Shown: in pieces, positions 3,365 through 18,506 of the stretch
How positions within the stretch are numbered: the first letter of the stretch is position 1
Layout of the letters: the number at the start of each line of letters is the position of its first letter
Source: a virus
Taxonomy: Duplodnaviria; Caudoviricetes
IMG/VR virus record: IMGVR_UViG_3300020045_005658
Coordinates: 1 to 27,016 of that record
Length of the DNA: 27,016 bases
Direction: 5' to 3' (one strand)
The notes under the pieces: generated by a model
The model's database searches: none
Told to the model about the DNA's origin: nothing
Seen by the model: only the letters and a program-made list of their open reading frames with translations
Made by a program: the position numbers and the translations under genes

Positions 3365-4129
3365 TTATATAGAATACTTAAAATCTGCAATACTATCTAG
3401 TGTGAATTTATTTTTCTTAATTAAATTTATTGCAGTTTTAGTAATCACTACTAATTCTTTACTGTGTGTATTAATTAATGAATTCCATTTTGCAAGATCT
3501 TTATCTTTTTGCATACCTTTAACTTCGATGTAGACATCTGTATCTGGTAAATAAAAATCTGGGAAATATGATCTGGTACCTTCAAATTCATATGCAAACG
3601 GAATTTCTGGTTGTTTTATCGTAATATTATTTGAAATACAAAATTCTACAAATAACTGTTCCCAACTACCTAAAACTTTAAATCCATTGGAACATATTAA
3701 TTCTTTAACATTGCCACGATTATATGTACCTCTATAAGAATCTGGATGATCTAATACAGCTTTCTGCATTGCAATAGAAATATTTTTAATGTTTTGTTCT
3801 GAATTTTTGCGACCTGTTCCTGCAACACTTTGCTTTTCTCTAGTTTCTCTAGATACTATATATTCTGTTTTAATATTATTTTTGTCTATAAATTGATTGC
3901 ATGGAGTTTGTCTATTTATATTCATTTTACATAGTGATTCATGTCTTTTATTAGTTGTATGTTCTCCGCAGTGAATACATATTTTTTCAAATTTTTTGAT
4001 TTGACCTATATTACTAGCCTTGCCTCCAGACTGACACTGTTTTGAGTTATAATGTATTTGTAAATTGTTTACACTAACTTCTGATCTACATAACAAACAC
4101 GATACTTTATTTTTGATGTGACTTGACAT
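3365..4129 (-). CDS. Putative free-standing homing endonuclease: Zn-finger, NUMOD3-like segment and PD-(D/E)XK (TnsA-N-like) nuclease, 254 aa
   Basis: YFPDFYL...YIEVKG nuclease motif; SRETREKQS NUMOD3-like motif; Cys/His clusters; ATG 4129 has a GGAGA RBS; opposite strand to the host genes. Confidence 0.78.
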   Translation of the reverse strand: MSSHIKNKVSCLLCRSEVSVNNLQIHYNSKQCQSGGKASNIGQIKKFEKICIHCGEHTTNKRHESLCKMNINRQTPCNQFIDKNNIKTEYIVSRETREKQSVAGTGRKNSEQNIKNISIAMQKAVLDHPDSYRGTYNRGNVKELICSNGFKVLGSWEQLFVEFCISNNITIKQPEIPFAYEFEGTRSYFPDFYLPDTDVYIEVKGMQKDKDLAKWNSLINTHSKELVVITKTAINLIKKNKFTLDSIADFKYSI

Positions 4130-4143
4130 GAAATTGTCTCCGA

Positions 4144-4224
4144 TAAATAACAATGAAGGACAGTACGGATACCTGTGCTGTGTGGCAAAGAGTCTCACTT
4201 CTTTGCCTTACTTCATTATTTAAT
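4144..4224. promoter_or_regulatory. Three-way-junction element upstream of nuclease A, bounded by TAAATA on both strands
   Basis: P1 4152-4158/4211-4217, P3 4160-4166/4175-4181, P2 4184-4191/4200-4207; same architecture at 18419-18506. Confidence 0.65.
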
Positions 4225-4280
4225 CAAAATGAAATTTCAATGAATCTTGTGTTATAATTACACTAAGAAAAATTCTTAAC

Positions 4281-4375
4281 TAATCTAATTGCACTGCCTT
4301 CTGCAGAAGGTGTTTGGTTGCAATGTTATCGTAGGTACTAAAACGGTTCGATTCCGAGTCAGTGCAATTAGATTA
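4281..4375 (+). ncRNA. tRNA-like module closed by a 16-bp perfect inverted repeat
   Basis: TAATCTAATTGCACTG 4281-4296 pairs with 4360-4375; inside are the CCTTCTGCAGAAGG hairpin, an irregular middle arm and CGG-TTCGATT-CCG T arm; promoter at 4250-4258. Confidence 0.6.
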
Positions 4376-4397
4376 ATTTATATCATGAAAGATTATT

Positions 4398-4688
4398 ATG
4401 ACAGAACAAATTGAACAAGAATCAATCCCGGCGTCACCGGAAGTTGTTCCGGTGACGCCGACCGATGAGGTAATAGATCTTATTGAATCACCTTTCCAAC
4501 AGCAATCCAGAGCATTCTGGTTTAAGATCACGATCCCCAATGTTGAACCATTCCATCTCACTGTAATTGCTGTTACTTCTAATGGTGCTAGGGAAGGTAT
4601 CAAACAGCAGTTTCCAGATTCTATATCGTCTTATCTTGGTGTATCTGATAAAATTATGCAGATTCAAGAGCAGACTGTAGTACAATAG
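4398..4688 (+). CDS. Hypothetical protein
   Basis: 96-aa ORF between two RNA genes. Confidence 0.65.
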   Translation: MTEQIEQESIPASPEVVPVTPTDEVIDLIESPFQQQSRAFWFKITIPNVEPFHLTVIAVTSNGAREGIKQQFPDSISSYLGVSDKIMQIQEQTVVQ

Positions 4689-4693
4689 ATAAT

Positions 4694-4768
4694 TCTGGTG
4701 TAATTCAATGGTTAGAATAGTTGCCTTATAAGCGACCTACCCGTGTTCAATTCCCGGCATCAGAACCA
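4694..4768 (+). tRNA. tRNA-Ile(UAU), CCA encoded
   Basis: Acceptor TCTGGTG/CATCAGA, anticodon arm GTTGC-CTTATAA-GCGAC (TAT 4727-4729), T loop TTCAATT with one T-stem mismatch, ACCA end. Confidence 0.88.
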
Positions 4769-4836
4769 ATATATTTATTTGCATGACCATTAAAATGTGT
4801 TATAATTAATCTATCAAAATCAAACGGTAATTAAAA

Positions 4837-5004
4837 ATGAACTCTTACACTACACAAATCGCATCTCTTCTTAAAATTTCGTTGGAACTTGCAGTAAAGG
4901 TCCAATATGAAATGGAATGTGCAGGAATTAATTTTTCTGAGTGTTCTACTCGTAAATTTAACTCTGAAGCAAAACTTGCTTATGCTATCGTTAAAGGTAT
5001 CTAA
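4837..5004 (+). CDS. Small hypothetical protein, 55 aa (MNSYTTQIASLL...), not in ORF track
   Basis: Open frame directly after TGTTATAAT (4798-4806). Confidence 0.65.
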   Translation: MNSYTTQIASLLKISLELAVKVQYEMECAGINFSECSTRKFNSEAKLAYAIVKGI

Positions 5005-5074
5005 TTAATTTCTTGGTTAAGATAGTGAACCATATCTCTAAAACTATCTATTCTTTAACTTTAGGAAATTTATT

Positions 5075-5275
5075 ATGCATGTCAAAAATCAACAAAAATT
5101 TACATCTCGTCGTACCGGCGATGTTATCAAAGTGACTAAGATCAAGCGAGATATTAGTCTAGACAGTAAATTTGATGTTATTACCGTTGCCGACACAAAA
5201 AATGGCAAAGTGATTCAAGGTACTCAACGTACCGTCTATGCCGATTCTATTCGTCGTCGATACTTTAAGGTCTAA
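5075..5275 (+). CDS. Small basic hypothetical protein
   Basis: 66 aa, Lys/Arg rich, AGGA RBS. Confidence 0.7.
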   Translation: MHVKNQQKFTSRRTGDVIKVTKIKRDISLDSKFDVITVADTKNGKVIQGTQRTVYADSIRRRYFKV

Positions 5276-5282
5276 TTGAAGA

Positions 5283-5642
5283 ATGAGATATGGTATCATT
5301 GGCTCTCGTTCATTCTTGGACTACGGTCTATTAAAGTCTATTCTCGTTAGACATAACATATCTCAGATTATATCTGGTGGCGCAATAGGCGCAGATTCTC
5401 TTGCTGCCACCTTCTCAAAAGAAAACAATATTCCTCTCGTAGAGTATCTTCCAGATTATAAAAAGTATGGTAAGAAAGCCCCATTTGTTAGGAATAAGTT
5501 GATTGTCAATAGTTCAGATATCATTATTGCATTTTGGGATTTGACGTCTACCGGCACTAAACATTCTCTTGATTATGCTAAGCATAAGAAGATTCGGTCC
5601 ATAGTTGTAGATTTTTCTGGAAATATTTCTAGATATAAATAG
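5283..5642 (+). CDS. SLOG-superfamily protein (YspA/DUF2493-like)
   Basis: GSRSF, SGGAIGADSLA, RNKLIV and AFWD..STGTKH motifs. Confidence 0.85.
   Translation: MRYGIIGSRSFLDYGLLKSILVRHNISQIISGGAIGADSLAATFSKENNIPLVEYLPDYKKYGKKAPFVRNKLIVNSSDIIIAFWDLTSTGTKHSLDYAKHKKIRSIVVDFSGNISRYK
5634..5641 (+). promoter_or_regulatory. T4-type late promoter TATAAATA
   Basis: Exact T4 gp55 consensus about 30 nt upstream of the ClpP-like gene. Confidence 0.6.
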
Positions 5643-5672
5643 CTCAGTCTAACAACCAAACCAAGGAATATT

Positions 5673-6314
5673 ATGCCTGCTATTGATATCAGTGACCTTT
5701 TAGAACTAGATTCTAGAGAACAAGTTTCCTCATTTATTAAGACCACAAAGTCAGAACTTTATTCCCACCAAGTCTTCTTTGATGAAGATATCTGCGAGCC
5801 ACGACAATATCGTGATCTGATCAATCTGCTCTATACATGCGATGATGGTCATGAGTTTAATTTTTTCATGAACACTTCAGGTGGTGTAATGGCAACTGCT
5901 ATTGCAATTGTCGAAGCAATTAAAGCAACAGATGCTAAAGTACGTGCTATTATTGTTGGTGACTGTCATTCTGCGGGTTCTATCATTGCTCTAAATTGTC
6001 ATGAAATTATCGTGTCGGATTCTGCAATGATGATGTGCCACACAGCATCTTATGGTACTGGTGGGAATACTCATAATGTAAAAGCCCATACCGATTTCTC
6101 CACTACATATGTGAATAAATTGTTGGATGGTGCATATACAGGATTTCTATCTATCCAAGAATTGGGTGAATTGAAGAAAGGAATCGAAATGTGGTTCAAT
6201 GCAGAAGAGATTGGAAAGCGTCTAGAGAGCCGTCTAGCGTATATTAACAAGAAGGCAAGTGATACCATTAAAGTTGCTAAAAAGTCTTCTAAAAGCGATC
6301 CTAGTAAACCCTAG
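5673..6314 (+). CDS. ClpP-like serine protease subunit
   Basis: MNTSGG, CHSAGSIIAL (catalytic Ser region), MMCHT (catalytic His) and WFNAEE motifs. Confidence 0.85.
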   Translation: MPAIDISDLLELDSREQVSSFIKTTKSELYSHQVFFDEDICEPRQYRDLINLLYTCDDGHEFNFFMNTSGGVMATAIAIVEAIKATDAKVRAIIVGDCHSAGSIIALNCHEIIVSDSAMMMCHTASYGTGGNTHNVKAHTDFSTTYVNKLLDGAYTGFLSIQELGELKKGIEMWFNAEEIGKRLESRLAYINKKASDTIKVAKKSSKSDPSKP

Positions 6315-6369
6315 GCACAACATACGCTGTTAGGTGTTATAATTAGCATCTAACAGTAACATTTATATT

Positions 6370-8049
6370 ATGATACAAAAAATTGATCTCGAAGAACAAA
6401 TTAATGACGCATTCGTCTCTCTTGGATTTCCACCGCGTGGAAATCAGGTATCGATTTGTCTAGATGTTCTAGACAAGTTTATCAACGAAGAGAAAAGGAA
6501 TGTTTGTTTGTGTGCAGGTACTGGCGTTGGCAAATCAGTCATCTCTGCGGTTATTGCTAGAGTGTTGGATAAAGCAACACCGGACAATAATGCGTTGCCG
6601 TCTATCACTTGTGTAGGCACTAACGCTCTATCAAAACAATATTCGGAATCCTTCTCTGATCTTGGAAAATATGAATATTTTCAAATTATGGGAGCGTCTA
6701 ATTATTCTTGTGCGTTCATGGAAGGTCAATTATCAAACCCTATCAAGACTGCCGACCAGTGCGTGAAGTCAAAACTCATGCCACAAGAAGTCGATAGATA
6801 TTGTAAAGGTTGCGAGTATGATGAAGCTAAGAAGGTAGTAAATTCTACTGCTAATCTTGTCACAAATTATACCTATTATATGATTTCTGCTCTGGCGTCA
6901 AATCATCTTAAGAAACGTAAATTATTTGTCGCAGACGAATCGCATACACTTAACGAATGGTTTTGCTCTTATGCCGAAATCCTAGTATCTGTCGATAATA
7001 TTGACCGATATATCAAAGAATTGGGTGATACAAACGGTAAATGTGATGATCAAATTGCCGGATTGATCATGCTTAAACAAAAGGTATCATCATCTGAGAT
7101 TACAGAGGAAAACTATACGCAGTATCTAGAAATTCTATGTTCTTTGTATAATTCTGTCGCTGATGTATTGGCTTCACAGTCTAGTCAATTAAAATCTATT
7201 GACGTAGTTAAATCTGGTAAATATGATAAATTATCCTCTAAATATATCTCATTAGGTTCTAAGATTTCTGATCTATTCAATAACGAATATGACCATGTGT
7301 TTGACAATTCTGTTCCCGGAACATTTACCATCAAGACAATTTTTATCGGTAAGATGATGGGCAAATTGCTTACTGATTACAATTTATTCATGTCGGCAAC
7401 AATTACTCCAGATTATGCTTTTGATGTGTTAGAATTAGATAGAGACGAAACATCGTTTATTCTACTACCGCCAGTATTTCCACCAGAGAATAAACCGCTA
7501 TTTTTCATCGGTAAGAATGCTCTAAACTATAATTCGTTAAAAGATCCTGATGTCATTGATGTCATGAAACATTCTGTGAAATCTATTATCGATTTCCATG
7601 CTGGACAAAAAGGCTTGATTTTATCGCCTTCCTTTTATCTAGGTTCTCAAATGGTATATCGACTCCAAGGGACTAAAGTTTTTGAGCATAAATCTGGTGT
7701 AAAGCTACAGGATCTAATCCTAGATTTTAAGAGATATAAAGGTTCTGCTGTATTGGTGTCGCCTTCTATTTGGGAAGGTTTAGATTTTCCAGAGGATGAC
7801 TCTCGATTCCAAATTATCTTGAAGTCACCGTACCCTAATTTGTCCGACAAGCGTGTTAAACATATTGCCGATAAGTACCCACACATCTACCAGGAGATGA
7901 CACTGTTAAAATTATTACAAGGTGTAGGTAGATCTATTCGATCACCGATAGATACTGCAGCGACATATTTTATTGACCCATCGTCTAAAAAGATATATAA
8001 TGGAAAACAGAATTTATGGAAGGATCATTATGACGTTAAAACAAACTAA
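6370..8049 (+). CDS. DinG/XPD-family SF2 helicase
   Basis: GTGVGKS, DESH, SAT, SIWEGLDF and QGVGRSIRS motifs; four-Cys cluster after motif Ia. Confidence 0.9.
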   Translation: MIQKIDLEEQINDAFVSLGFPPRGNQVSICLDVLDKFINEEKRNVCLCAGTGVGKSVISAVIARVLDKATPDNNALPSITCVGTNALSKQYSESFSDLGKYEYFQIMGASNYSCAFMEGQLSNPIKTADQCVKSKLMPQEVDRYCKGCEYDEAKKVVNSTANLVTNYTYYMISALASNHLKKRKLFVADESHTLNEWFCSYAEILVSVDNIDRYIKELGDTNGKCDDQIAGLIMLKQKVSSSEITEENYTQYLEILCSLYNSVADVLASQSSQLKSIDVVKSGKYDKLSSKYISLGSKISDLFNNEYDHVFDNSVPGTFTIKTIFIGKMMGKLLTDYNLFMSATITPDYAFDVLELDRDETSFILLPPVFPPENKPLFFIGKNALNYNSLKDPDVIDVMKHSVKSIIDFHAGQKGLILSPSFYLGSQMVYRLQGTKVFEHKSGVKLQDLILDFKRYKGSAVLVSPSIWEGLDFPEDDSRFQIILKSPYPNLSDKRVKHIADKYPHIYQEMTLLKLLQGVGRSIRSPIDTAATYFIDPSSKKIYNGKQNLWKDHYDVKTN

Positions 8050-8059
8050 GGAAATAACT

Positions 8060-8431
8060 ATGGAAGAAGCTCCACCCTACCCTACAGGCGTAGTACCTCG
8101 TATGCCAGTCGGCAATCTTCAATTTGGACCTACACCGAATTATGTATCTAATAATGTAGATGGCGCATTTATTCCAGATGGCACCGTGATTAAAGTAAAG
8201 CCTACGAAGAAACATTCTCATTATTTCAAATCGGTAGCTGGACTAGATGAGATTGATGTTTATCGAGTCCTCGAATTATTCAACGTGACTAATCCTGCCA
8301 TTGCTCATGCCGCCAAGAAATTATTGGTCGCTGGTGGTCGAGGTGCAGGCAAAGATATCGATAAAGATATTGCCGAAGCTATCGATACTCTTGTTAGGTG
8401 GCAAAATATGCGTAGGGAAGATAATGTCTGA
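8060..8431 (+). CDS. Conserved phage protein (DUF3310-like C-terminal domain)
   Basis: HSHYFK...IDVYRVLELF...HAAKKLL..G.RG.GKD pattern; ATG 8060 has an AAGGA RBS. Confidence 0.7.
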   Translation: MEEAPPYPTGVVPRMPVGNLQFGPTPNYVSNNVDGAFIPDGTVIKVKPTKKHSHYFKSVAGLDEIDVYRVLELFNVTNPAIAHAAKKLLVAGGRGAGKDIDKDIAEAIDTLVRWQNMRREDNV

Positions 8432-8957
8432 TTTAAATTGGGTAATGACCGATATTGAGACTCTTTCTACAGCCTCTAATGCAGTAATTGTAACTATTGC
8501 ATCAGTAAAGTTTTCTATGGCGTCAGACAATATAGAGACATTCTGTGTCAATATTAATCCCAGATCATCTAAAGAAGTAGGATTACATATTGACATTGAT
8601 ACTCTTAACTGGTGGAAATCTCAGAAACCTGATGTAATGCAGACATGGATGCATTCTCAGATTGACTTACCTGCAGCACTAGATCAGTTTACTGAATTCT
8701 TTGGTACAGATAAAAATACTCTCCATTTTTGTAATGGTTTATCATTTGATTTTCCTATCCTGGATTCATCATATAGAGCAACAGGTAGAAAAGCACCGGG
8801 TAATTATTGGAATCAGCGAGATGCTCGCACCATCTATTGGGCTGCCGGTTTAGATCCTAGAAACGAACCTCGTGTGGGGAATTATCATTCTGCCATAGAT
8901 GATTGTCTAACACAGATTCAAAATCTTAAGAAAGCAATGGGAACTAAACATGTCTGA
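8424..8957 (+). CDS. DEDDh 3'-5' exonuclease (DexA/exonuclease VIII-like)
   Basis: DIETL, NGLSFDFPIL, RDARTI and HSAIDDC motifs; ATG 8424 overlaps the upstream stop. Confidence 0.85.
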   Translation: MSDLNWVMTDIETLSTASNAVIVTIASVKFSMASDNIETFCVNINPRSSKEVGLHIDIDTLNWWKSQKPDVMQTWMHSQIDLPAALDQFTEFFGTDKNTLHFCNGLSFDFPILDSSYRATGRKAPGNYWNQRDARTIYWAAGLDPRNEPRVGNYHSAIDDCLTQIQNLKKAMGTKHV

Positions 8958-9312
8958 TGTGCATTCACAATACGAATATCGTTTTTATAAGAATGTAACC
9001 AATTCTGCTCAATGTTTGTCATGTGGTCAAATTATAGAATCAAAACATCGACATGATTTTGTGTCGTGTGAGTGTGGTGATATTTCTATCGATGGTGGTT
9101 TAGATTATTGTCGTTATGTCGTTAAGAATGTGGATAATTTTAAAAATCTTTCCATTTCCCGTAAATTCACGGAAGTTGAACTTACGTTGTTTATCCACGA
9201 TTCCATTAGAAAATCTCTTGAGAATAAAATCTATTCGTCTACTTATGATGAAAATATTTTAGCCGCAGCGAAACATTTTAGACAATTATGGTACATTCAT
9301 TACGAACCATGA
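8950..9312 (+). CDS. Cys4 zinc-binding phage protein
   Basis: CLSCGQIIESKHRHDFVSCECG...DGG motif. Confidence 0.75.
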   Translation: MSDVHSQYEYRFYKNVTNSAQCLSCGQIIESKHRHDFVSCECGDISIDGGLDYCRYVVKNVDNFKNLSISRKFTEVELTLFIHDSIRKSLENKIYSSTYDENILAAAKHFRQLWYIHYEP

Positions 9313-9359
9313 TAAATACGTGATATAATATATTTTTTAACAATGAAAGAAGTGAAACA

Positions 9360-10025
9360 ATGCAAATTTCCAAATCAACCGTAGATATTCTCAAGAACTT
9401 CGCAAGTATCAACCAGAACATTCTCATTAAAGAAGGTAATGTACTAACATCACGTACCGTTGCCAAGAATCTTTTTGTGTCTGCAAAAGTAGATACAGAT
9501 TTCCCACAAGAATTTGGCATCTATAATCTCAACCAATTTTTGGGAGTATTGTCGCTTTTCTCAGATCCAGAATTAGAACTTACAGATAAGTCAGTTATTA
9601 TCTCTCAAGGTAAAAATAAAGTTCAGTATCTATTCGCATCTCCCGATGTTTTAGATTATCCAGAAAAAGCGATCACGATGCCTCCTATTGATGCAAAGTT
9701 TGAGCTTTCCGAGGAAAATCTTAAAAGTCTATTAAAGGCTGGTGCCGTTTTATCTTCTACCGATCTTCGTATCTCCGGAGACGGTGAGACCATCACGTGC
9801 ACCACATTAGATCCAAAGAATCCTTCTGCCAATACATTCTCGGTTGAAGTTGGTGAAACTGGTCGAACATTTGAGGCATTCATTAAACTGGAAACGCTGA
9901 AACTGATTTCTGGATCGTATACCGTATCTTTGTCATCAAAGAAAATCACCAAATTTGAGAATTCTTTGATTGCATATGAACTTTATATTGCAAATACATC
10001 CGATTCCAGTTGGGTTTCTGCATAA
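9360..10025 (+). CDS. 45: Sliding clamp (T4 gp45)
   Basis: N-terminal ILKNFASINQNI and FGIYNLNQFL, typical length. Confidence 0.95.
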   Translation: MQISKSTVDILKNFASINQNILIKEGNVLTSRTVAKNLFVSAKVDTDFPQEFGIYNLNQFLGVLSLFSDPELELTDKSVIISQGKNKVQYLFASPDVLDYPEKAITMPPIDAKFELSEENLKSLLKAGAVLSSTDLRISGDGETITCTTLDPKNPSANTFSVEVGETGRTFEAFIKLETLKLISGSYTVSLSSKKITKFENSLIAYELYIANTSDSSWVSA

Positions 10026-10068
10026 ATTGTGTTATAATTACTCTACCAACTAATAAATAGGAAACAAT

Positions 10069-10455
10069 ATGTTAGAATTTGCAGATTATAGAGAATCGTT
10101 AAATCAAGAGAGAATGATCATTGAATCATTTCTTGATGAGATGGCTAATCTACCATCTGCGGATACTGGCTTAGGTTACTTTATTTGGATTGGTGAAGTA
10201 GGTGGTCAGCATGGGCCAAGGGTTAAGGTAAGCAACAGTCATGGTAAAATGAATGTAAACAATTGTTTTGTTATGTCTGTTGCCAAGATTCCTGAGGTAC
10301 TCACTCCTAGATCATGTAAGTTGAGAAAGTCTGAGGTAGATGATATTTCAGACTGGATTAAACTTAACTATGATGTGTTAATGAAAATGTGGAATGTTTA
10401 TGAGACCGGTAACGGATCTATAATTAAACTACAAGATAAACTAAAGAAAATTTAA
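10069..10455 (+). CDS. Hypothetical protein, DUF4160-like, with a possible capsid-targeting N-terminus
   Basis: EMANL...TGL...IWIG...QHGPRVKV...WIKLN..VL.KMW pattern; TAAATA upstream. Confidence 0.65.
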   Translation: MLEFADYRESLNQERMIIESFLDEMANLPSADTGLGYFIWIGEVGGQHGPRVKVSNSHGKMNVNNCFVMSVAKIPEVLTPRSCKLRKSEVDDISDWIKLNYDVLMKMWNVYETGNGSIIKLQDKLKKI

Positions 10456-10464
10456 GGAAATATT

Positions 10465-11660: not shown

Positions 11661-11663
11661 TAT

Positions 11664-11853: not shown

Positions 11854-11883
11854 TTAATTAGAATTTTTACATGTAGAATACAT

Positions 11884-12141: not shown

Positions 12142-12170
12142 TTAAATGGTTTTCATGTTATAATCATATC

Positions 12171-12341
12171 ATGGACAAATATTTCAAACAAGAAGCAGAA
12201 CGCAGGGGATACTCTGTGTTCTATGACCATACACTAAGAGTATGGACAGTCTTTAAGGAGGGATATGATGCTGAGTACATTCCTCCATATATCTTTAAAA
12301 ATACGCCAATAGATAAGTTGGTTCATGTCTATCTTCAATAA
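12171..12341 (+). CDS. Small hypothetical protein (MDKYFK...)
   Basis: ATG directly after TGTTATAAT (12156-12164), so possibly leaderless. Confidence 0.6.
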   Translation: MDKYFKQEAERRGYSVFYDHTLRVWTVFKEGYDAEYIPPYIFKNTPIDKLVHVYLQ

Positions 12342-12367
12342 GCACATCCATTATATTATGAACTACT

Positions 12368-12973
12368 ATGACCGTACTTTTAAAACTAATTAAACCAATC
12401 CAGTCACTAGATAAGTATATTAACAGGACTAATATAAAAATTCGGTCTTGGATATTCTTGAAATTTGGTGGGTATAAATGTACTCTATGTGGATCTAAAC
12501 ATTTACATTTTAAACATCAAGAGGCAATCGGCTGGGTAAATCATGTATCAGACACCACATCAAGAATGCTTCTATCATGGTCTATGAATGACCATATTGT
12601 ATGTCCATTATGCGCAATTGATGAAATTCATAACCACTTCATCGAACATTATTATTTTCCTAAAAATGGCGTTGATAATCTAGATGATATTGTAAAATTA
12701 GGGACATGTGATTATACAGGAAAGACAAATGTTCCCGTATGCAACATCATTTTTGGGTTGGGTACCGGTGGATTCAATCTTCGACATGGTAAAGAATGGT
12801 GGAATGGTTTTAATGCGTCAGAAGAAGCACTAGAGTCTGCGATCAGAACCTGTGTAATTCAATTATCCATTATCACATACGATACCGATAAACCATTGTA
12901 TGCATCTGGAAAATATCAAGTACCTTCACAAACATTCATAGAATGGAAAAGAAAACAGGACTGGTATCTTTAA
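12368..12973 (+). CDS. Cys-rich hypothetical protein
   Basis: 201-aa ORF with CxxC pairs. Confidence 0.7.
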   Translation: MTVLLKLIKPIQSLDKYINRTNIKIRSWIFLKFGGYKCTLCGSKHLHFKHQEAIGWVNHVSDTTSRMLLSWSMNDHIVCPLCAIDEIHNHFIEHYYFPKNGVDNLDDIVKLGTCDYTGKTNVPVCNIIFGLGTGGFNLRHGKEWWNGFNASEEALESAIRTCVIQLSIITYDTDKPLYASGKYQVPSQTFIEWKRKQDWYL

Positions 12974-13016
12974 ATGTGTTATAATTGATCTATTCCCTCT
13001 TCCAGAAAGTTTTATT

Positions 13017-13304
13017 ATGATTATTGCATCACCTCTCTATATTCGAGTTATTACAGCAGACCGAGACCGTGGCTATATGCTTTTGCTCTCATGGACAAAA
13101 CCTGTAAACCAACGAACAGCACACCAGATTTCAACTTTATCTTCACCTACTCGGGTAAGTCTTGATGCTATTATTGCATCTGCCATACGTATGGCAAAAG
13201 TTACAGAAGTGATTGATGTGACAGAATCTGGTATCAAGCGACAGCTTGCCAAGATGTTTGGAGAACTTCCAGAAAAGACTAAGAAAGTCTCTGAAGATGA
13301 ATAA
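13017..13304 (+). CDS. Hypothetical protein
   Basis: 95-aa ORF after promoter 12977-12985, overlapping the next start. Confidence 0.7.
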   Translation: MIIASPLYIRVITADRDRGYMLLLSWTKPVNQRTAHQISTLSSPTRVSLDAIIASAIRMAKVTEVIDVTESGIKRQLAKMFGELPEKTKKVSEDE

Positions 13305-13698
13305 AGTAGGATTTACTGCATCATGTTTTGATCTATTTCATGCGGGACATATTCTCATGTTGAAAGAAGCAAAATCTCAATGCAATTATCTTATAGTAGG
13401 ACTACAGACTGACCCTACTATAGATAGACCAGAGAAAAATTCTCCCGTACAATCTATATTTGAACGATTTGTACAACTAAAATCTTGCATTTATGTCGAT
13501 GAGATTGTTATATATGCCACAGAAAAAGATTTATTGGACATTTTAAATTCATATAAGATTGATGTTAGAATATTAGGGTCAGAATATGAAGGTAAAAATT
13601 TTACCGGACATGATCTTAATATGCAAATCTACTTCAATACACGTAAACATGGATTTAGCACAACAGAACTTCGCAAGCGTATTACTTCACAAGGTTAA
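13297..13698 (+). CDS. Cytidylyltransferase (TagD/glycerol-3-phosphate cytidylyltransferase-like)
   Basis: FDLFHAGH (HxGH) motif, GLQTD, STTELR; ATG 13297. Confidence 0.88.
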   Translation: MNKVGFTASCFDLFHAGHILMLKEAKSQCNYLIVGLQTDPTIDRPEKNSPVQSIFERFVQLKSCIYVDEIVIYATEKDLLDILNSYKIDVRILGSEYEGKNFTGHDLNMQIYFNTRKHGFSTTELRKRITSQG

Positions 13699-14642
13699 TG
13701 ATGAATCAATTTGAAAATTTAGTTTGGGAACAACGATTTCGCCCACATATTGTTCAGGATACTATCCTGCCAGAAATTACTAAAAAGATGATACAAGATA
13801 TTGTTAAATCTGGAAATATTCCTAATTTTTTGTTTGAGGGTACATCTGGGACCGGTAAGACTACGCTAGCGCGTGTAATTGCAGAAGAACTTGGCGCAGA
13901 TTTATTATTCATTAATGCATCTATCGATGGAAATATCGATACCCTGAGAACTACGATTTCACAGTTTGTGACTACAGTATCGTTTACAGATTCTAAAAAG
14001 ATTGTATTACTCGACGAAGCTGATTTTCTTAACCAACAATCTACACAACCTGCGATGCGCGGTTTTATGGATGAGTTTTCTAAAAATGCAATTTTTATCC
14101 TTACATGTAATCATAAACATCGCATCATTTCACCACTACTTTCGCGTCTTCAGGTAATTGAGTTTAAATTTTCTAAGGAAGAGAAACAGTCTGCAGCAAT
14201 GCAGATGCTTAAACGGTGTTGCCAAATTCTTGACACAGAAGAAGTTAAATACGACAAGAAAGCTGTCGCTGGAGTTGTATCGAAAAATTTCCCAGATTTT
14301 CGCAAGACTTTGGTAGAATTGCAACGATATTCTGCATCTGGTGAAATCGATTCCGGCATCTGTTCTGTGTCCGATGATGGCAATTTGGCAGAACTGTTCA
14401 AGGCAGTTAAAGGTAAAGACTTTACCACTTGTCGTAAATGGGTAGCCAATAACTCGATGGATTCTGCTACTTTTTATCGTTCACTGTATGACAAACTTCT
14501 ACCAGAATTAGTTCCTCAGACCGTGCCGCAAGTTATTCTACATATTAATGATTTTCAGTATCAGGCAGTTTCAGCAGTTGACCTAGAAATCAATCAAATG
14601 GCATTCCTTATCAATCTAATGTCTTCAGCGAGTTTCAAGTGA
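13698..14642 (+). CDS. 44: Clamp loader large subunit (T4 gp44)
   Basis: WEQRFRP, GTGKTT, LLDEAD, FILTCN, LSRL and FPDFRK motifs. Confidence 0.95.
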   Translation: MMNQFENLVWEQRFRPHIVQDTILPEITKKMIQDIVKSGNIPNFLFEGTSGTGKTTLARVIAEELGADLLFINASIDGNIDTLRTTISQFVTTVSFTDSKKIVLLDEADFLNQQSTQPAMRGFMDEFSKNAIFILTCNHKHRIISPLLSRLQVIEFKFSKEEKQSAAMQMLKRCCQILDTEEVKYDKKAVAGVVSKNFPDFRKTLVELQRYSASGEIDSGICSVSDDGNLAELFKAVKGKDFTTCRKWVANNSMDSATFYRSLYDKLLPELVPQTVPQVILHINDFQYQAVSAVDLEINQMAFLINLMSSASFK

Positions 14643-15022
14643 CTCCATTTGACTTCACTAAGTCTCTTACACAGACTAAAGACGATCTATATACGACGGA
14701 AGAAGTATTCAACAAAGAATACACTCCGTTTATGATTAATCGGATTCTGTCTAATTCATCACAGACTACTCTATTTGCAGATGCAATGAATAGAGGCATT
14801 TTAGATAAGAAGCTTCAATATGATTTTTATCGATTTGGTATCCCCAAGACTAAAGGTTACACAAAATATATTAAGAAAGATGTGTCTGAATATAATCAGG
14901 AACATTTAGATTTTATTTGTTCAATTATGAATGTATCTTTGAAGCGTGCTATTGAAATGTATGGTATGATTGGATCAGATGCAGTTCAATTTGAATTGAA
15001 TAAACGAGGCGGCAAGAAATGA
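14639..15022 (+). CDS. 62: Clamp loader small subunit (T4 gp62)
   Basis: PFDF, YTPFMINRILS and QYDFY motifs; located between 44 and regA. Confidence 0.9.
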   Translation: MTPFDFTKSLTQTKDDLYTTEEVFNKEYTPFMINRILSNSSQTTLFADAMNRGILDKKLQYDFYRFGIPKTKGYTKYIKKDVSEYNQEHLDFICSIMNVSLKRAIEMYGMIGSDAVQFELNKRGGKK

Positions 15023-15062
15023 TTTGATAAATAGTTCCATTAGTAACTAATTTTGGTATATA

Positions 15063-15473
15063 ATGGAAATAGAAGAACAAAAATTTGAATATGGTGTTGA
15101 GGTATTGTTGCCCACGCCAGATTCTTTCAATATCTTACGTGAATCTCTAACTCGAATAGGAATCGCATCTAAGAAAAGTAAAACGCTGTATCAAAGTTGT
15201 CATGTATTGCATAAACGTGGCAGATACATGATCATGCATTTTCTTGAGTTATTTCGCTTGGATGGAAGAAGTGCGGATATTTCAGAAGATGATTATCGTA
15301 GACGAAATACTGTCGCCAAATTAATTTCTCAATGGGGTATATGTAAACTAGTGTATAATGAAGACATCGAATTTACAGTTCCTGTATCGGAGATTAAGAT
15401 CATTCCATATAAAGAGAAAAAAGATTGGGTTCTCGTTTCTAAATACACCGTAGGAAATAAAAAATCATTATGA
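15063..15473 (+). CDS. regA: Translational repressor RegA
   Basis: RESLTRIGIAS, LYQSCHVLHKRGRY..HFLELF.LDG and RRNTVAKL motifs. Confidence 0.96.
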   Translation: MEIEEQKFEYGVEVLLPTPDSFNILRESLTRIGIASKKSKTLYQSCHVLHKRGRYMIMHFLELFRLDGRSADISEDDYRRRNTVAKLISQWGICKLVYNEDIEFTVPVSEIKIIPYKEKKDWVLVSKYTVGNKKSL

Positions 15474-15489
15474 AAGAAGGCTGGGGATT

Positions 15490-15708
15490 ATGACAAAGAA
15501 AATTACACCGCTACTAAATTCAATGGATACTCGAATGATCGGTTCTAGGTTCATGGTGAAGATTTCTACGATGGACAATGGTGTGCATCCAAAGTCAATT
15601 ATGTGTGCTACACAAGATCTCGTGAGTAAAGGTTTTTCTCTTAAATTCTTTAAGTTAGAAGAAGATGTGACAGAATTTGTAAAAATCTTGTCGAACTTCG
15701 TTAAATAG
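15490..15708 (+). CDS. Hypothetical protein
   Basis: 72-aa ORF with GGGG RBS-like element. Confidence 0.65.
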   Translation: MTKKITPLLNSMDTRMIGSRFMVKISTMDNGVHPKSIMCATQDLVSKGFSLKFFKLEEDVTEFVKILSNFVK

Positions 15709-15746
15709 TGTTATAATTACTTTATCGAAATCAAAAGGAATATATT

Positions 15747-16040
15747 ATGGCTAAGAAAATGATCTCTGAAGAAATTGGAACATTGGATGTCAATTATACT
15801 TCGGCAGAAGATGTTATTACCAATCTTCAGAAATATATCGATAGGTACGGTAAAGATAAAATTACTCTCGAACTAGAAACCACAGCATATTCGGATGATA
15901 ACTATGTTGCGATTAAGTTAAAACGTGAAGAAACTGATGTGGAAGAAAACGTCAGGATGGCAAATGAATCACGATGGAAATTGAATGAAGACAATAATGA
16001 GCGTGTGATGTATGAACGTCTGAAGAAAAAGTTTGAATAA
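15747..16040 (+). CDS. Hypothetical protein
   Basis: 97 aa; promoter 15709-15717 and AAAAGGAA RBS; REETD.E...YERLKKKF ending common in phage proteins. Confidence 0.8.
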   Translation: MAKKMISEEIGTLDVNYTSAEDVITNLQKYIDRYGKDKITLELETTAYSDDNYVAIKLKREETDVEENVRMANESRWKLNEDNNERVMYERLKKKFE

Positions 16041-16061
16041 ATAACAACGATAGGTTATAAT

Positions 16062-16178
16062 ATGTTTAAATACAATGAAGGTTCTGGATATGCCATCGAA
16101 GGTGACGGTTATGCAATTGACGGTTATGCAATTGACGGATATGGATTAGGTATTGATCTGAATCCTATCTTTATTTAA
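16062..16178 (+). CDS. 38-aa peptide with GYAID repeats (MFKYNEGSGYAIEGDGYAIDGYAIDGYGLGIDLNPIFI), not in ORF track
   Basis: Open frame; in-frame 15-bp tandem repeat TGACGGTTATGCAAT at 16103-16132; TAAATA and AGGT upstream. Confidence 0.5.
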   Translation: MFKYNEGSGYAIEGDGYAIDGYAIDGYGLGIDLNPIFI

Positions 16179-16185
16179 AGAATTT

Positions 16186-16271
16186 GGGGAATTATACCGT
16201 TAAGGACACGGCTCGGACTGTAAATCCGATGTCTTCAGACTGGCTAGGATCGTTACCTAGATTCCCCACCA
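16186..16271 (+). tRNA. tRNA-Tyr(GUA)
   Basis: GGGGAAT/ATTCCCC, TCGGA-CTGTAAA-TCCGA, long variable arm, T loop ATCGTTA, ACCA end. Confidence 0.93.
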
Positions 16272-16276
16272 AATAT

Positions 16277-16352
16277 TCCTCAGTAGCTCAGTTGGTAGAG
16301 CGCAGCACTGTTAATGCTGATGTCCGTGGATCGTGCCCACGCTGGGGAGCCA
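16277..16352 (+). tRNA. tRNA-Asn(GUU)
   Basis: TCCTCAG/CTGGGGA, CAGCA-CTGTTAA-TGCTG, T loop ATCGTGC, GCCA end. Confidence 0.95.
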
Positions 16353-16358
16353 AATTAC

Positions 16359-16432
16359 CTGCTCTAAAGTGTAAGTATATGCACGGTTCCTAAAGCGGGA
16401 AACATGCCAGTGAGAATCTGGGTGAGTAGCCA
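16359..16432 (+). ncRNA. tRNA-like cloverleaf with CCA end and no valid anticodon loop
   Basis: CTGCTC/GAGTAG closing stem, GTGTA/TGCAC arm, TTCCT-AAAGC-GGGAA arm, CCAG-TGAGAAT-CTGG T-like arm, CCA. Confidence 0.6.
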
Positions 16433-16437
16433 AATTT

Positions 16438-16512
16438 TTACTCAAGTCATTAGACCTCGAAAGAGAAGTCCTGTTTACAGGTGTTACGGCGTGTTGAACC
16501 GTTGAGAGTAAA
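16438..16512 (+). ncRNA. Small cloverleaf module
   Basis: TTTACTC/GAGTAAA closing stem; GAC-CTC-GAAA-GAG-AA-GTC, CCTG-TTTA-CAGG and ACGG...CCGT arms. Confidence 0.5.
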
Positions 16513-16642
16513 TTTATTCATGGATTCTGATGATATCGATGTCAGTGACGATTTGTTGGTAGCTTTCTTAGGTTCGATTCCCTAGCTCTGGTGAGTTTGA
16601 AATCTATCATCGTAAAGTCTTTGTAGAGTCCATGAATAAATT
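16511..16642 (+). ncRNA. Structured module closed by an 18-bp inverted repeat with an internal T arm
   Basis: 16511-16528 pairs with 16625-16642 (one G-U); contains TAGG-TTCGATT-CCCTA. Confidence 0.6.
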
Positions 16643-16682
16643 ATGTTATAATTAGTTACTGAAATTCAAAAGGAAATATATT

Positions 16683-17044
16683 ATGATTGAAATGATTAGT
16701 CCAGTTTCTAGAACAACACCCGGTATTTTTTGCTTAACACCATGTCAAGAGAAGCAAAACGTGCTGATCTACTTGAACATTTCAAGATTAAGACTGCTGA
16801 TGGTGAAAATACCTTTGTTGAAGTTGAAATGAAAATCAATGGTGTTGAAGTTGATTTTTCAAAGTCTGTTACTGAAATATGGGAACGGATGCAATCAAGC
16901 TATGATGAAGACTTGCTTGAAAAAGCCAAAGAATTGGTTGGCGTTATGCGATTGGAGCGATTGCAAGATATTATTCAGGGAGTTGAAGATAAACTGGAAA
17001 GAGAAGTTAATGAATTGTTTAGTAAGACTTTTGGTGTGGTATAA
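16683..17044 (+). CDS. Hypothetical protein split by an apparent -1 frameshift at the T6 run 16726-16731
   Basis: ATG 16683 has promoter and strong RBS but is out of frame with the 16730-17044 ORF; one extra T gives a 120-aa product. Confidence 0.6.
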
Positions 17045-17066
17045 TTAATGTGATAAATAGTATAAT

Positions 17067-17141
17067 CTCGGTAAGGTGTTGACGGCGACACATGTGCTTT
17101 GGGAGCATAAGAGCTTAGTTCGATTCTAAGTACCGTGACCA
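17067..17141 (+). tRNA. tRNA-Pro(UGG)
   Basis: CTCGGTA/TACCGTG (T-T mismatch), TGTGC-TTTGGGA-GCATA, CTTAG-TTCGATT-CTAAG, ACCA; A at position 8. Confidence 0.88.
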
Positions 17142-17350
17142 GTTTCGTTTCTTAATTGAAACACAATGAGAGTGCCTGAAGGCCCGTGGTTAAATCTAAT
17201 ACCACTGAGGAATGTTATTCCAAGAATCAGAAAATAACGTGTTTATAAATTCGGCGTCTAATAAACGCAAAGCCTTGATGGTTAGATACTGTAGATCAGT
17301 ATTTGACAAAATAAGATAGGCGAGTCAGTAATAGTTTTAGGCTGACACCA
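17142..17350 (+). ncRNA. Candidate ~200-nt multi-branched RNA ending in a minihelix plus ACCA
   Basis: Nested stems GCCT/AGGC, AAGGC/GCCTT, GTGGT/ACCAC, ATGTTATT/AATAACGT, AGATACTG/CAGTATTT and GTCAGT/GCTGAC-ACCA between two tRNAs. Confidence 0.55.
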
Positions 17351-17351
17351 T

Positions 17352-17426
17352 AAGTCTCTGGTGTAATTGGCAACACCCTAACCTCCAAAGTTAGAGTTCA
17401 CCGTTCGAGTCGGTGGGGACTTGCCA
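17352..17426 (+). tRNA. tRNA-Trp(CCA)
   Basis: AAGTCTC/GGGACTT, CTAAC-CTCCAAA-GTTAG, CACCG-TTCGAGT-CGGTG, GCCA end. Confidence 0.94.
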
Positions 17427-17436
17427 AAATAACAAC

Positions 17437-17474
17437 GACTTGCATTTAAGATATAAACTATGCAAGTCTTTTTT
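17437..17474 (+). terminator. Possible intrinsic terminator
   Basis: GACTTGCAT/ATGCAAGTC 9-bp stem followed by T6; the 14-nt loop is long for a terminator. Confidence 0.45.
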
Positions 17475-17477
17475 AAC

Positions 17478-17551
17478 GCTCTTGTAGTATAATGGTATTA
17501 CAGGTGATTTGTATTCATCATATTGGGGTTCGATTCCTCACAGGAGCACCA
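17478..17551 (+). tRNA. tRNA-Thr(UGU)
   Basis: GCTCTTG/CAGGAGC, GGTGA-TTTGTAT-TCATC, TGGGG-TTCGATT-CCTCA, ACCA end. Confidence 0.93.
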
Positions 17552-17559
17552 TTTAATAA

Positions 17560-18408
17560 TTAATGAATATTTAGTAGATTTTTAACTAATTCTATTTTTG
17601 ATTTGCTTATAAATTCTTTATGTGAAATTCTGAGTGTTGTTATTGTATGATATTTTTTAATTAGTTCATCTCGTAAATTATCATACTCTTTACTTTGTTC
17701 GTGTTGTTTACCGTCAAGTTCAATTAGTAGATTATATGTTGGAAAGAAGAAGTCACCATAATAGATTTTATTGTTACATCTAAATGTTTTATTTTTAATA
17801 TATTCAGTAAAATTATTTGATATAAGCCAATTTTCAAATGATAATTCAAGATATGATGGAGAACTTTTACATCTATTTTCTTGTGGATTCCATCCTAAAT
17901 CAATTCTTTGATTTACTTTAATTGATAATAATTTTTTATAGCATAATTTAGAGCATGTTTTTCTTGTTCCCTGAAAACAAACACTACATACTTCACAATA
18001 AGAAATTTTTGAATATATTTGTGATACTGGTTGTCTTTTCTTTTCTGTTTTAGATAGACTTTCTTTTAATTTTATAGCCTGCTGTTCTCTACTTTCTCTA
18101 CTTCTTATGCTATTATTGTACGTTGCTGCACACGACTGTGAACAAAATTTATTATTTCTACATTTGAATGTATAAAAATTATCACAGTAATCACATTTTC
18201 TAGGTGACATATTATATTCTGTTTCTTGTGTTAAATTGAATTCTTTAGATTTTGCATTTAACCTTCTGAATGTTATAGAACCACCCATTTTTACCCGTGC
18301 TTGCCCTATATCTGTATGTTTGTTTATATAATGTGTATGTATTCCCTTTGCAGAATATTCTTTTCTACCTATAATACATGAACAGAGAGGCGATTTATAA
18401 TTTGTCAT
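17560..18408 (-). CDS. Putative free-standing homing endonuclease: Zn-fingers plus DUF559/Vsr-like nuclease
   Basis: YYGDFFF...LLIELDGKQH...DNLRD motif; CxxC...FCSxSC repeats; AGGA RBS; opposite strand to the host genes. Confidence 0.8.
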   Translation of the reverse strand: MTNYKSPLCSCIIGRKEYSAKGIHTHYINKHTDIGQARVKMGGSITFRRLNAKSKEFNLTQETEYNMSPRKCDYCDNFYTFKCRNNKFCSQSCAATYNNSIRSRESREQQAIKLKESLSKTEKKRQPVSQIYSKISYCEVCSVCFQGTRKTCSKLCYKKLLSIKVNQRIDLGWNPQENRCKSSPSYLELSFENWLISNNFTEYIKNKTFRCNNKIYYGDFFFPTYNLLIELDGKQHEQSKEYDNLRDELIKKYHTITTLRISHKEFISKSKIELVKNLLNIH

Positions 18409-18418
18409 AGCTAATTCC

Positions 18419-18506
18419 TATAAATAGTTGAAATGCAGGGACAACGATCTAATTCGTCGCTGAACTTTTGCCGAATACAAAAGTTCTTACCTGTATTCTA
18501 TTTAAT
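18419..18506. promoter_or_regulatory. Three-way-junction element upstream of nuclease B, bounded by TAAATA on both strands
   Basis: P1 18432-18439/18490-18497, P3 18441-18447/18454-18460, P2 18462-18470/18478-18486. Confidence 0.65.

Follow-up and report, generated by a model that had tools for sequence, protein, structure and literature searches.

Hairpins with a late-promoter box in the 5′ arm, upstream of the ribosome-binding site (RBS) of the nuclease, are described for the T-even homing endonuclease genes I-TevI, I-TevII, I-TevIII, segB, Aeh1 mobE, and seg43(25) (PMC2988022), and similar hairpins are reported in PMC2677866. The former source also describes T4 SegB as an optional nuclease gene within a phage tRNA cluster, and the latter treats Vsr-like/DUF559 homing endonucleases. 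The C4 antisense RNA of phages P1 and P7 is presented as a three-stem scaffold with an RBS-complementary loop that varies with the target (PMC5320573), and the CfrI antisense RNA of the T4-like cyanophage S-PM2 as overlapping a homing endonuclease gene (PMC2984593). The tolerance of phages toward many toxic homing endonucleases is explained only in part by the single hairpins of T4, and so is the expression of nuclease ORFs that arrive antisense in tRNA clusters.

The window analyzed here, the whole stretch of 27,016 nt, comes from an uncultured T4-like phage and contains two nuclease genes, both headed by a three-armed element. The layout recalls that of the T-even hairpins in its late box, C4 in its scaffold and loop, SegB in its place among tRNAs, CfrI in the predicted antisense overlap, and the Vsr-like enzymes in the DUF559 domain of ORF 2, which is above the Pfam cut-off (27.7 bits; cut-off 20.6). 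A literature search by titles and abstract openings returned no description of the three-way-junction element. The word "endonuclease" is absent from the main text of PMC5737381; supplement 5 of PMC10690425 lists candidate RNAs upstream of GIY-YIG/HNH genes, with which, judging by the listing, the element family may overlap.

Two Three-Way Junctions between Facing Late Boxes

Both copies of the element lie where the original prediction had placed them (Table 1), and the three-way junction proposed there is recovered for each copy on both strands. Folding z-scores (+/- strand) are -6.0/-4.2 for copy 1 and -5.3/-4.6 for copy 2, with 0/200 shuffles as stable in each case. A structure descriptor matches the window twice, at the two known copies; 150 Markov-simulated windows have on average 0.09 matches, none has two, and none has both exact boxes. 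A covariance model trained without copy 1 recovers that copy at E 7e-8. The element has no Rfam match in the window or in 40 loci, whether the gathering score or a looser limit (E up to 5-10) is applied; a known ribozyme or other Rfam class was rejected. The TAAATA late-promoter-like boxes that had been seen facing each other across the junction do flank it in both copies; the consensus used for comparison was NATAAATA (PMC2984593).

Two finer structural claims stand only in part. The ACA/TGT pairing at the base of P3 holds in the register predicted for the mRNA strand (at 0.73), but not in that of the + strand; there, the prediction leaves GACAR unpaired in the junction, and P3 begins after it. 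The mixture of G-U and A-C signals noted within the window is partly accounted for by a 14-nt inversion in copy 1.

Table 1. Positions of the features discussed, numbered from the first letter of the window
Feature	Position	Strand	Basis or remark
tRNA-like gene, anticodon arm a long hairpin	3248..3354	+	Rfam tRNA, 46.6 bits
Nuclease 1, 254 aa	3365..4129	-	N-terminal Zn finger, second Cys cluster, PD-(D/E)XK
Nuclease 1 translation-initiation region, SD-like GGAGA	4130..4143	-	P3-loop target in un-inverted relatives
Late-promoter-like box, copy 1, pointing into element	4142..4149	+	Sequence, box statistics; predicted promoter of antisense RNA and downstream + strand genes
Three-way junction, copy 1	4152..4217	+	Folding, covariance model
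Copy 1 P1	4152-4158/4211-4217	+	
Copy 1 junction GACAG	4159-4163	+	
Copy 1 P3 region	4164-4183	+	
Copy 1 inverted 14-nt segment	4164..4177	.	Between 4-nt inverted repeats; versus all relatives found
Copy 1 P2	4184-4207	+	
Copy 1 junction TTA	4208-4210	+	
Late-promoter-like box, copy 1	4217..4224	-	Predicted promoter of nuclease 1 mRNA
tRNA-Thr(UGU)	17478..17551	+	
Nuclease 2, 282 aa	17560..18408	-	Zn finger, treble-clef-like module, DUF559/Vsr-like PD-(D/E)XK
7-nt word (-9 to -3) in nuclease 2 translation-initiation region	18411..18417	-	Repeated in P3 loop
Late-promoter box, copy 2, perfect, pointing into element	18419..18426	+	Predicted antisense promoter
Three-way junction, copy 2	18430..18498	+	Folding, covariance model
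Copy 2 P1	18430-18439/18490-18498	+	
Copy 2 junction GACAA	18440-18444	+	
Copy 2 P3	18445-18459	+	
Anti-RBS loop within copy 2 P3	18448-18456	+	
Copy 2 P2	18462-18486	+	
Copy 2 junction TTA	18487-18489	+	
Late-promoter-like box, copy 2	18499..18506	-	Predicted promoter of nuclease 2 mRNA
tRNA 3′ remnant (T arm, acceptor strand, CCA)	18520..18549	+	Resembles intact G003 tRNA-Gly

Nuclease Genes and Their tRNA Surroundings

The N-termini of the two ORFs align as one Zn-finger family, as had been noticed; in the finger of nuclease 2, Gly replaces the second, otherwise invariant Cys. The nuclease domains, thought to be different, do form two subfamilies but are not unrelated, both being of the PD-(D/E)XK fold and aligning colinearly (BLAST E 8e-5). 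That of nuclease 1, whose start at 4129 was picked from its RBS and the homolog L001, is canonical (SWE...PDF...EVK). Both ORFs keep the nuclease motif residues and match PHROG endonucleases (E 5e-12 and 2e-9); neither matches the GIY-YIG domain, and neither protein has a significant sequence match in the PDB. Protein-seeded locus scans gave 0 loci and 1 locus, and an indexed homolog search gave only the query.

ORF 2 ends 8 nt from tRNA-Thr. ORF 1, also said to end at a tRNA, lies 10 nt from a gene that matches Rfam tRNA but has no ARAGORN call, its hairpin anticodon arm being taken from the fold. The remnant past copy 2 does not duplicate tRNA-Thr, and integrase-like tRNA duplication was rejected on that ground. 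A relative, G003, which encodes tRNA-Thr and tRNA-Gly, is syntenic with the window, yet lacks cassette 1 at the corresponding site; near site 2 it has a different cassette, and elsewhere a leader 79% identical heads a different nuclease. In the DNA run of a small-share relative, a contig joint (3223-4386) bypasses cassette 1, which is a weak hint (side 41 nt). The proposal that the nuclease family is modular and optional (mobile), lies near tRNA genes, and carries a structured leader and late boxes is supported, and the shared leader probably has a regulatory role. Both ORFs are predicted to encode free-standing homing endonucleases and to have been inserted at tRNA 3′ ends, in antisense orientation.

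A Covarying Family with Predicted Folds on Both Strands

The descriptor search gave 108 matches in 475 records, of which 4 were removed as false and at least 104 distinct elements kept; matches in the metagenome scan are mostly chance, and family counts are to be taken as lower bounds. The leader has no blastn match in cultured phages, and model R1 has none in 4 cultured phage records. Among 58 model-aligned matches, 97% of P1 cells and 95% of P2 cells are paired, against 32-48% in slid controls, and the 242-283 double changes of these stems are equaled in 0/500 shuffles. Of the 88 class I elements, 87 have an exact TAAATA nested in the 5′ arm, upstream of the RBS and 5-16 nt ahead of the junction. 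Where the search did not demand it, the antisense-side box is present in 27/33, and the mRNA-side box is exact in 39/39 class I and 0/16 class II elements.

Junction-proximal wobble favors the antisense strand in P1 (24 versus 4 clusters; 12 versus 1 in the least biased subset) and in P3 (24 versus 1 clusters, a ratio inflated by the search patterns). Whole-P3 wobble in the subset with free P3 arms favors the mRNA strand, 11 versus 4, and the bias in P2 is not significant (8 versus 3 clusters). In 29 CCCAG-type rows, the G-U cells number 27 on the antisense strand versus 2 on the mRNA strand, with 6 true mismatches. Overall minimum free energies are equal between strands (53 versus 51), and the mRNA strand also folds, in the other P3 register, with 42 G-U-compatible one-sided changes. 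The 3-nt junction is T-N-A whichever strand is read. The tips of P3 are polarized (57 same-orientation pairs, 0 inverted); those of P2 are not (15 of each), marginally so against shuffles. There is no signal of kissing between the P2 and P3 loops (z -0.1 in class I, 0.6 in class II), and a match of the class I P2 loop to the tRNA or divergent flank was rejected as weak or absent (z 2.3 at 45 nt, 0.8 at 100 nt).

The P3 Loop Repeats the RBS Region

Read in mRNA sense, the P3 loop is a repeat of the translation-initiation region (TIR) of its own gene. The longest match averages 7.2 nt, and 10,000 permutations have a mean of 4.15 and a maximum of 4.66 nt (n = 73 with an ORF); 411 of the 526 matched letters lie inside the loop. 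With one element per cluster the match is 7.1 versus 4.3 nt permuted, reaching at least 6 nt in 55/66. It includes 3.7 non-SD letters versus 1.6 permuted, extends to the TIRs of the SD-less leaders L317, L329, and L351, and tracks the start codon, not the end of the element. On the gene-side flank of class I, z is 27.8 for P3 and 0.2 and -2.5 for P2. RNA of the opposite strand (+ in the window) would therefore show an anti-RBS loop and, as this matches the gene's ribosome landing site, the element likely damps production of the enzyme. A same-strand complement of the RBS is present neither upstream nor in P2 or P3 of class I, and a cis anti-RBS sequence upstream was rejected.

The predicted duplex of the copy 2 loop with its TIR has -6.7 kcal/mol, against -3.4 on the TIR of the other gene; those of the window subfamilies are weak (-6.4 to -6.7 kcal/mol). 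Duplex energies do not separate the two pairing directions (35 versus 37), and loop/TIR transitions give no more than a hint of direction (6 versus 1, p 0.125; looser count 23 versus 16, p 0.34). The mRNA's own P3 is the perfect complement of the antisense loop and would compete with the TIR. Because leader and RBS travel together, inheritance, and not selection at each gene, may account for some of the match.

In class II (at least 16 elements), whose gene is on the other strand, the loop of P2 is a cis complement of the RBS (15/16 at 6 nt or more, z 8.4). The two classes hence carry the anti-RBS loop on one and the same strand. Homology of class II is likely but not proven, because model R1 matches 0/16 of its loci and the search pattern itself prescribed the junction letters.

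A Proposed Promoter-RNA-RBS Cassette and Its Alternatives

We favor, with a probability of roughly 0.55, a portable cassette from which the nuclease message would be read in one direction and an antisense RNA that restrains the same gene in the other. Its parts, a pair of opposed late-promoter-like boxes around a three-way junction together with an RBS, stand before unrelated selfish nuclease genes. The first box would drive the nuclease mRNA; the second would drive an antisense RNA with three arms, in which the loop of P3 would base-pair in trans with the gene's own TIR and hold translation down. In some copies an extended P1 may add a T4-style block to read-through transcripts, as is predicted for copy 1 but not for copy 2. 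Copy 2 would retain the lock, and copy 1 would have lost the match through inversion of its tip. The element and its covariation, its independence of the protein family, the match of loop to TIR, and the two conserved boxes are observed; that either box is transcribed, that the RNA folds and pairs in trans, and that translation is repressed are steps that we infer from sequence.

Control by a T4-type hairpin alone is unlikely but deserves weight. In it, the extended P1 would hinder the RBS in read-through transcripts, late transcripts would escape, the second box would serve downstream host genes, and the loop-RBS match would be a passive relic of local duplication. The layout is that reported for I-TevI, segB, mobE, and the non-sequestering seg43(25) hairpin (PMC2988022), and in 17 of the 20 class I loci that have tRNAs these lie solely on the opposite strand, so that an outward promoter would be useful anyway. 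The predicted unpaired probability of the TIR also rises from long to late transcripts, from 0.46 to 0.54 in the family mean (n = 73) and from 0.19 to 0.55 for copy 1, but the average effect is small, and it is absent for copy 2 (0.52 versus 0.51). A relic would be expected to decay, whereas the match keeps step with the start codon in 66 clusters with differing RBS words; in addition, the matched letters are unpaired, and a cis complement occurs in class II.

It is rather improbable that the loop, as RNA of either strand or as an extruded DNA hairpin, pairs with the RBS-side duplex DNA, either controlling transcription at the two promoters that face each other or guiding the leader as it is re-attached to new ORFs. 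The start-codon tracking of the matched word, the class II complement on the mRNA strand itself, and the excess of G-U-type non-Watson-Crick cells over true mismatches all argue against it, even if both strands fold with a symmetrical 3-nt junction, P2 tips occur in both orientations (marginally so against shuffles), the tip inversion of copy 1 fits hairpin DNA, and leaders exchange ORFs at the ATG.

About equally doubtful is a functional fold on the mRNA, with the P3 loop as a spare copy of the RBS region; this copy would be a ribosome standby site, or else a decoy or threshold toward antisense RNA that reads through from the tRNA operon. The mRNA-strand register is predicted (at 0.73) and keeps G-U-compatible changes, and the cassettes lie antisense within tRNA clusters; a standby site needs neither non-SD spacer letters nor a match to SD-less leaders, and class II mRNA has complementarity, not identity.

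Recognition of the junction by the nuclease's own N-terminal Zn finger, for autoregulation or with the junction as RNA cofactor, was put forward in the original prediction and is highly improbable: both window copies do combine the two, and T4 I-TevI is reported to autorepress at its own late promoter, though on DNA (PMC2988022), but the junction is present in only 3 of 12 distinct Zn-finger leaders from the protein search, and only 11 of 87 class I elements precede a window-type finger (regular-expression test). Model R1 matched 0/11 junction-less Zn-finger loci; homologs that lack the junction are an outcome that the original prediction itself had named as refuting it. The Pfam domains behind the element include GIY-YIG, HNH, DUF559, DUF7487, and TnpB, and a near-identical leader (same P3, same RBS) heads GIY-YIG-like, finger-less, and Zn-finger genes. 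Since the element precedes unrelated families and the finger mostly occurs without it, a cofactor role is unlikely. The partner of the junction is the RBS region of the gene, not its protein.

An Inverted Tip in Copy 1

The segment inverted in copy 1 has an exact 22-nt match in the opposite orientation in three viral contigs and one metagenome contig (L137). The inversion, which is either a real mutation or an artefact, abolishes the anti-RBS match, the predicted duplex with its own TIR falling to -3.4 from -6.4 kcal/mol. It was seen in 1/88 class I elements and in none of a further narrow pattern scan, and programmed inversion was rejected accordingly. A more ambitious version of the cassette, which we regard as speculative, is a palindrome of about 70 bp serving as both mRNA leader and programmable antisense repressor, in trans through P3 (class I) or in cis through P2 (class II), with heritable unlocking by tip inversion. 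If true, inversion as in copy 1 would be a rare on-switch for selfish nucleases.

Comparison with Known Systems

The analysis contributes the refutation of protein recognition, a two-class strand logic, promoter control, and an inverted allele. A widespread, uncatalogued scaffold with a reprogrammable anti-RBS loop, traveling with promoter and RBS across GIY-YIG, HNH, PD-(D/E)XK, and TnpB genes, offers a directly testable answer to the tolerance and expression of such nucleases and a compact natural translational switch.

Unlike the T-even elements as described in PMC2988022, with a single hairpin and one promoter, the present ones have a three-way junction with invariant junction bases and a second box facing back; the match to the RBS is carried by a loop of the opposite strand, and their stem mostly ends before the RBS. 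SegB is given there as a GIY-YIG enzyme, whereas the window cassettes encode Zn-finger/treble-clef proteins, which carry exchangeable PD-(D/E)XK, Vsr-like, or HNH ends, and are inserted antisense to tRNAs. Relative to the Vsr-like/DUF559 enzymes of PMC2677866, the ORFs have other N-terminal modules and a tRNA-adjacent antisense site, and their cleavage is predicted. CfrI has a length of about 225 nt and connects psbA with the nuclease gene, and the relevant parts of PMC2984593 mention no junction scaffold. In contrast to C4, whose covariance model matches neither the window nor the 40 loci, and which is described with two targeting loops (PMC5320573), the element has one; it is encoded overlapping the leader of its own target and is predicted to control selfish nucleases under late promoters.

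The Two Elements and Their Phage

Judging by its genes, the source of the window is an uncultured T4-like phage: the DNA polymerase (43% identical to its best cultured match), sliding clamp, clamp loader, helicase, UvsX, and RegA-like repressor match T4-type PHROGs. Both junction elements lie where the original prediction had placed them, and a three-way junction is predicted on either strand of both copies (folding z between -4.2 and -6.0). Two elements exceed the chance expectation, as a structure descriptor matches twice in the window versus a mean of 0.09 times per simulated window (n = 150). Rfam matched tRNAs alone in the window, and permissive thresholds added no relevant family. The TAAATA-type box agrees with the late-promoter consensus in excerpts of PMC2984593. 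The nuclease ORFs do end beside tRNA or tRNA-like genes, ORF 1 at 10 nt from a tRNA-like gene and ORF 2 at 8 nt from a tRNA-Thr.

Features in the window and at other loci (L numbers)
Locus	Coordinates	Feature
Window	3190-3247	Truncated tRNA 5' half flanking cassette
Window	3248-3354	tRNA-like gene, anticodon loop replaced by long AAATAGA-tipped hairpin
Window	4152-4217 (+)	Junction copy 1
Window	4289-4370	Degenerate tRNA-like fold flanking cassette
Window	10069-10455	128-aa ORF
Window	18376-18378 region	ORF 2 residue 14, second Zn-finger Cys replaced by Gly
Window	18430-18498 (+)	Junction copy 2
Window	18520-18549	tRNA-Gly-like 3' remnant flanking cassette
L093	1285-1386	tRNA-like gene, AAATAGA-tipped hairpin as in window
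L014	2389-2490	tRNA-like gene, AAATAGA-tipped hairpin as in window
L475	about 13115-13215	tRNA-like gene, AAATAGA-tipped hairpin as in window
L097	1008-1199	One of four loci where group I intron and permuted tmRNA matches adjoin the cassettes
L228	G009:C1:9538-9624	Weak further R1 match

A Covarying Family of Junctions

DNA pattern scans and the descriptor, over 475 records, gave at least 108 distinct matches, of which at least 104 were kept once four had been dropped as false (L054, L367 plus strand, L359, and L245); L080, picked up earlier, did not reach the thresholds of the second descriptor. A covariance model built from 16 elements (R1) matches 55 of 71 additional class I loci and 0 of 16 class II loci, whose nuclease gene lies on the other strand of the element. 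In a 58-row R1 alignment, pairing reaches 97% in stem P1 and 95% in P2, double changes are numerous, and the covariation exceeds 500 of 500 shuffles and every slid control; because the alignment was fitted to R1, these counts lean towards the model. The L228 match (E = 3.5e-4) is away from the Zn-finger gene.

The P3 Loop and the Ribosome-Binding Site

Read in mRNA sense, the P3 loop of class I elements repeats the translation-initiation region (TIR) of its own gene. The mean longest match is 7.2 nt in the 73 elements with an ORF (31 without one were left out), versus 4.15 nt for permuted loop-TIR pairs (maximum 4.66 in 10,000 permutations), and 411 of the 526 matched letters fall inside the loop. 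The match persists when each cluster is reduced to a single element (7.1 versus 4.3 permuted, n = 66), when only letters that are not part of the SD word are counted (3.7 versus 1.6), and in SD-less leaders. No same-strand complement of the RBS region occurs in class I leaders, so that pairing requires the opposite strand. In the 16 class II elements, a cis complement of the gene's RBS sits in the P2 loop (at least 6 nt in 15 of 16, z 8.4). Hence the anti-RBS loop lies on one strand in both classes, that reading box-P1-GACAR-P3-P2-TTA-P1', which is the + strand of the window. The class II box is on this strand in 16/16 elements and on the other in 0/16; class I keeps both boxes (39/39 and 27/33, counted in elements whose search pattern left the box free), as expected if it needs two transcripts. 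Class II comprises L355, L357, L366, L367, and 12 more, and is also represented in G023 and G024; its P3 tips are often short and palindromic, and a contig has up to six pattern matches.

The element, the covariation, the protein independence, the loop-TIR match, the two boxes, and the optional cassettes were seen directly. To antisense repression we give a probability of roughly 0.55. In this model, each box would drive late transcription, yielding nuclease mRNA one way and antisense RNA the other; the three-armed antisense RNA, possibly a leader of downstream tRNA transcripts, would dock on the nuclease RBS and repress it, and in read-through RNA P1 would add a further block in some copies. 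Control by the hairpin alone is rather unlikely, pairing of the loop at the DNA level is more doubtful still, and a decoy on the mRNA side is improbable to the same degree. As to the strand, junction-proximal wobble pairs in P1 and P3 favor the + strand, and the predicted ensembles differ in P3 register between strands, the + strand register exposing the anti-RBS loop. Against the + strand stand equal MFEs, a P3 wobble count that is pattern-biased and reversed in the free subset (11 versus 4), a P2 wobble without significant strand bias, G-U-compatible changes in the mRNA-strand register, and a direction test of loop and TIR changes that is no more than suggestive. Both strands probably fold, and the + strand is the better supported candidate for the regulator.

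Copy 2 is intact, its + strand loop being predicted to pair with 7 nt of its own mRNA (positions -9 to -3) at -6.7 kcal/mol, versus -3.4 kcal/mol on the TIR of the other gene. In copy 1, a stretch of 14 nt flanked by 4-nt inverted repeats is inverted by comparison with three viral contigs and a metagenome contig that have exactly the same arm, and the predicted loop pairing goes from -6.4 in the relatives' orientation to -3.4 when inverted. This accounts for part of the mixed G-U and A-C signals noted originally. Across the family, P2 tips occur in both orientations (with a marginal excess over shuffles) and P3 tips in one, so tip inversion resembles an accident that recurs and is weeded out of P3 more than it does a programme. 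The inversion in copy 1 may also be an artefact of assembly or amplification.

A Junction Independent of the Zn Finger

The original prediction held that the Zn finger recognizes its own junction, to be found upstream of homologues. An alignment search for the finger gave 15 loci with 12 distinct leaders: 3 with the junction, 4 with another hairpin motif, 4 in which the late box stands 5 nt ahead of the ATG, and 1 lacking all three; R1 matched 0 of 11 junction-less loci. Window-type fingers are downstream of 11 of 87 class I elements, among the matches listed. By Pfam, the 73 proteins behind the junction include GIY-YIG, HNH, NUMOD3, DUF559, DUF7487, TnsA-N-like, and TnpB, and many have no match. 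Junction and finger occur independently of each other, and with unrelated families behind the same element, recognition by the finger is very improbable.

TnpB (IS605 OrfB) genes are headed by the junction at L287 and L432. Upstream of the Zn-finger ORF, L089, L090, L091, and L093 share another conserved leader, in which a late box is followed by a hairpin that contains an internal loop; it has no Rfam match. At L088, L094, L099, and L100 the ATG is exactly 5 nt after the late box, which suggests leaderless late mRNAs as a possible third means of restricting these nucleases.

Nucleases and Mobility

A search with residues 1-100 of ORF 2 retrieved 242 representatives; the matches listed have in common the Zn finger and a treble-clef-like module, followed by exchangeable nuclease domains. 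Among the 150 listed, 137 pass the finger motif test, and by our motif rules (with Pfam on 60) their ends are HNH-type (37), PDF..DPKN (35), Vsr-like (16), PDF..EVK (10), DUF559 (8), other HNH (5), and other or short (26). The nuclease domains of ORFs 1 and 2, predicted to be different, can be aligned through the catalytic region and are therefore distinct subfamilies of one fold and not unrelated domains. Their relatives are placed antisense within tRNA clusters.

The expected modular mobility is supported by G003, a relative syntenic with the window (70-80% nucleotide identity). Cassette 1 is missing there, the ORF beyond it coming straight after a similar tRNA-like gene. Close to site 2, G003 has a different nuclease, whose leader shares 79% identity with copy 1, then intact tRNA-Thr and tRNA-Gly. 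Free-standing homing endonuclease cassettes behave in this way, and cleavage by the two nucleases is presumed. The 128-aa ORF, which has no PHROG match at E 1e-8, is another optional insertion; G003 lacks it, and a contig joint passes over it.

The Cys replaced in ORF 2 is invariant in 16 aligned homologues. Many family members, among them P0003, P0009, and P0011, apparently extend into the adjoining tRNA on its antisense strand, which gives them GFEP/TAP-type tails. The AAATAGA-tipped genes could be decoy tRNAs or a small insertion family; those of the window, L093, and L014 are tRNAs for Rfam and not for ARAGORN. tRNA 3' remnants are also present past the Zn-finger genes of L091, L094, and L095, and matches like those of L097 are found at L096, L099, and L069.

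Comparison with Known Systems

The listings of the literature searched hold no description of the junction element; the unnamed candidate RNAs in excerpts of PMC10690425 could overlap the family. Its way of working would be C4-like antisense control, as outlined in the parts of PMC5320573 at hand, although it differs from C4 RNA in leaving the C4 model unmatched and in having one targeting loop. It would combine such an RNA with the nuclease leader control of T-even phages, while differing from the T-even hairpins as presented in extracts of PMC2988022 and PMC2677866. The junction element is real and would be a variant form of two known kinds of control, antisense and leader-based.
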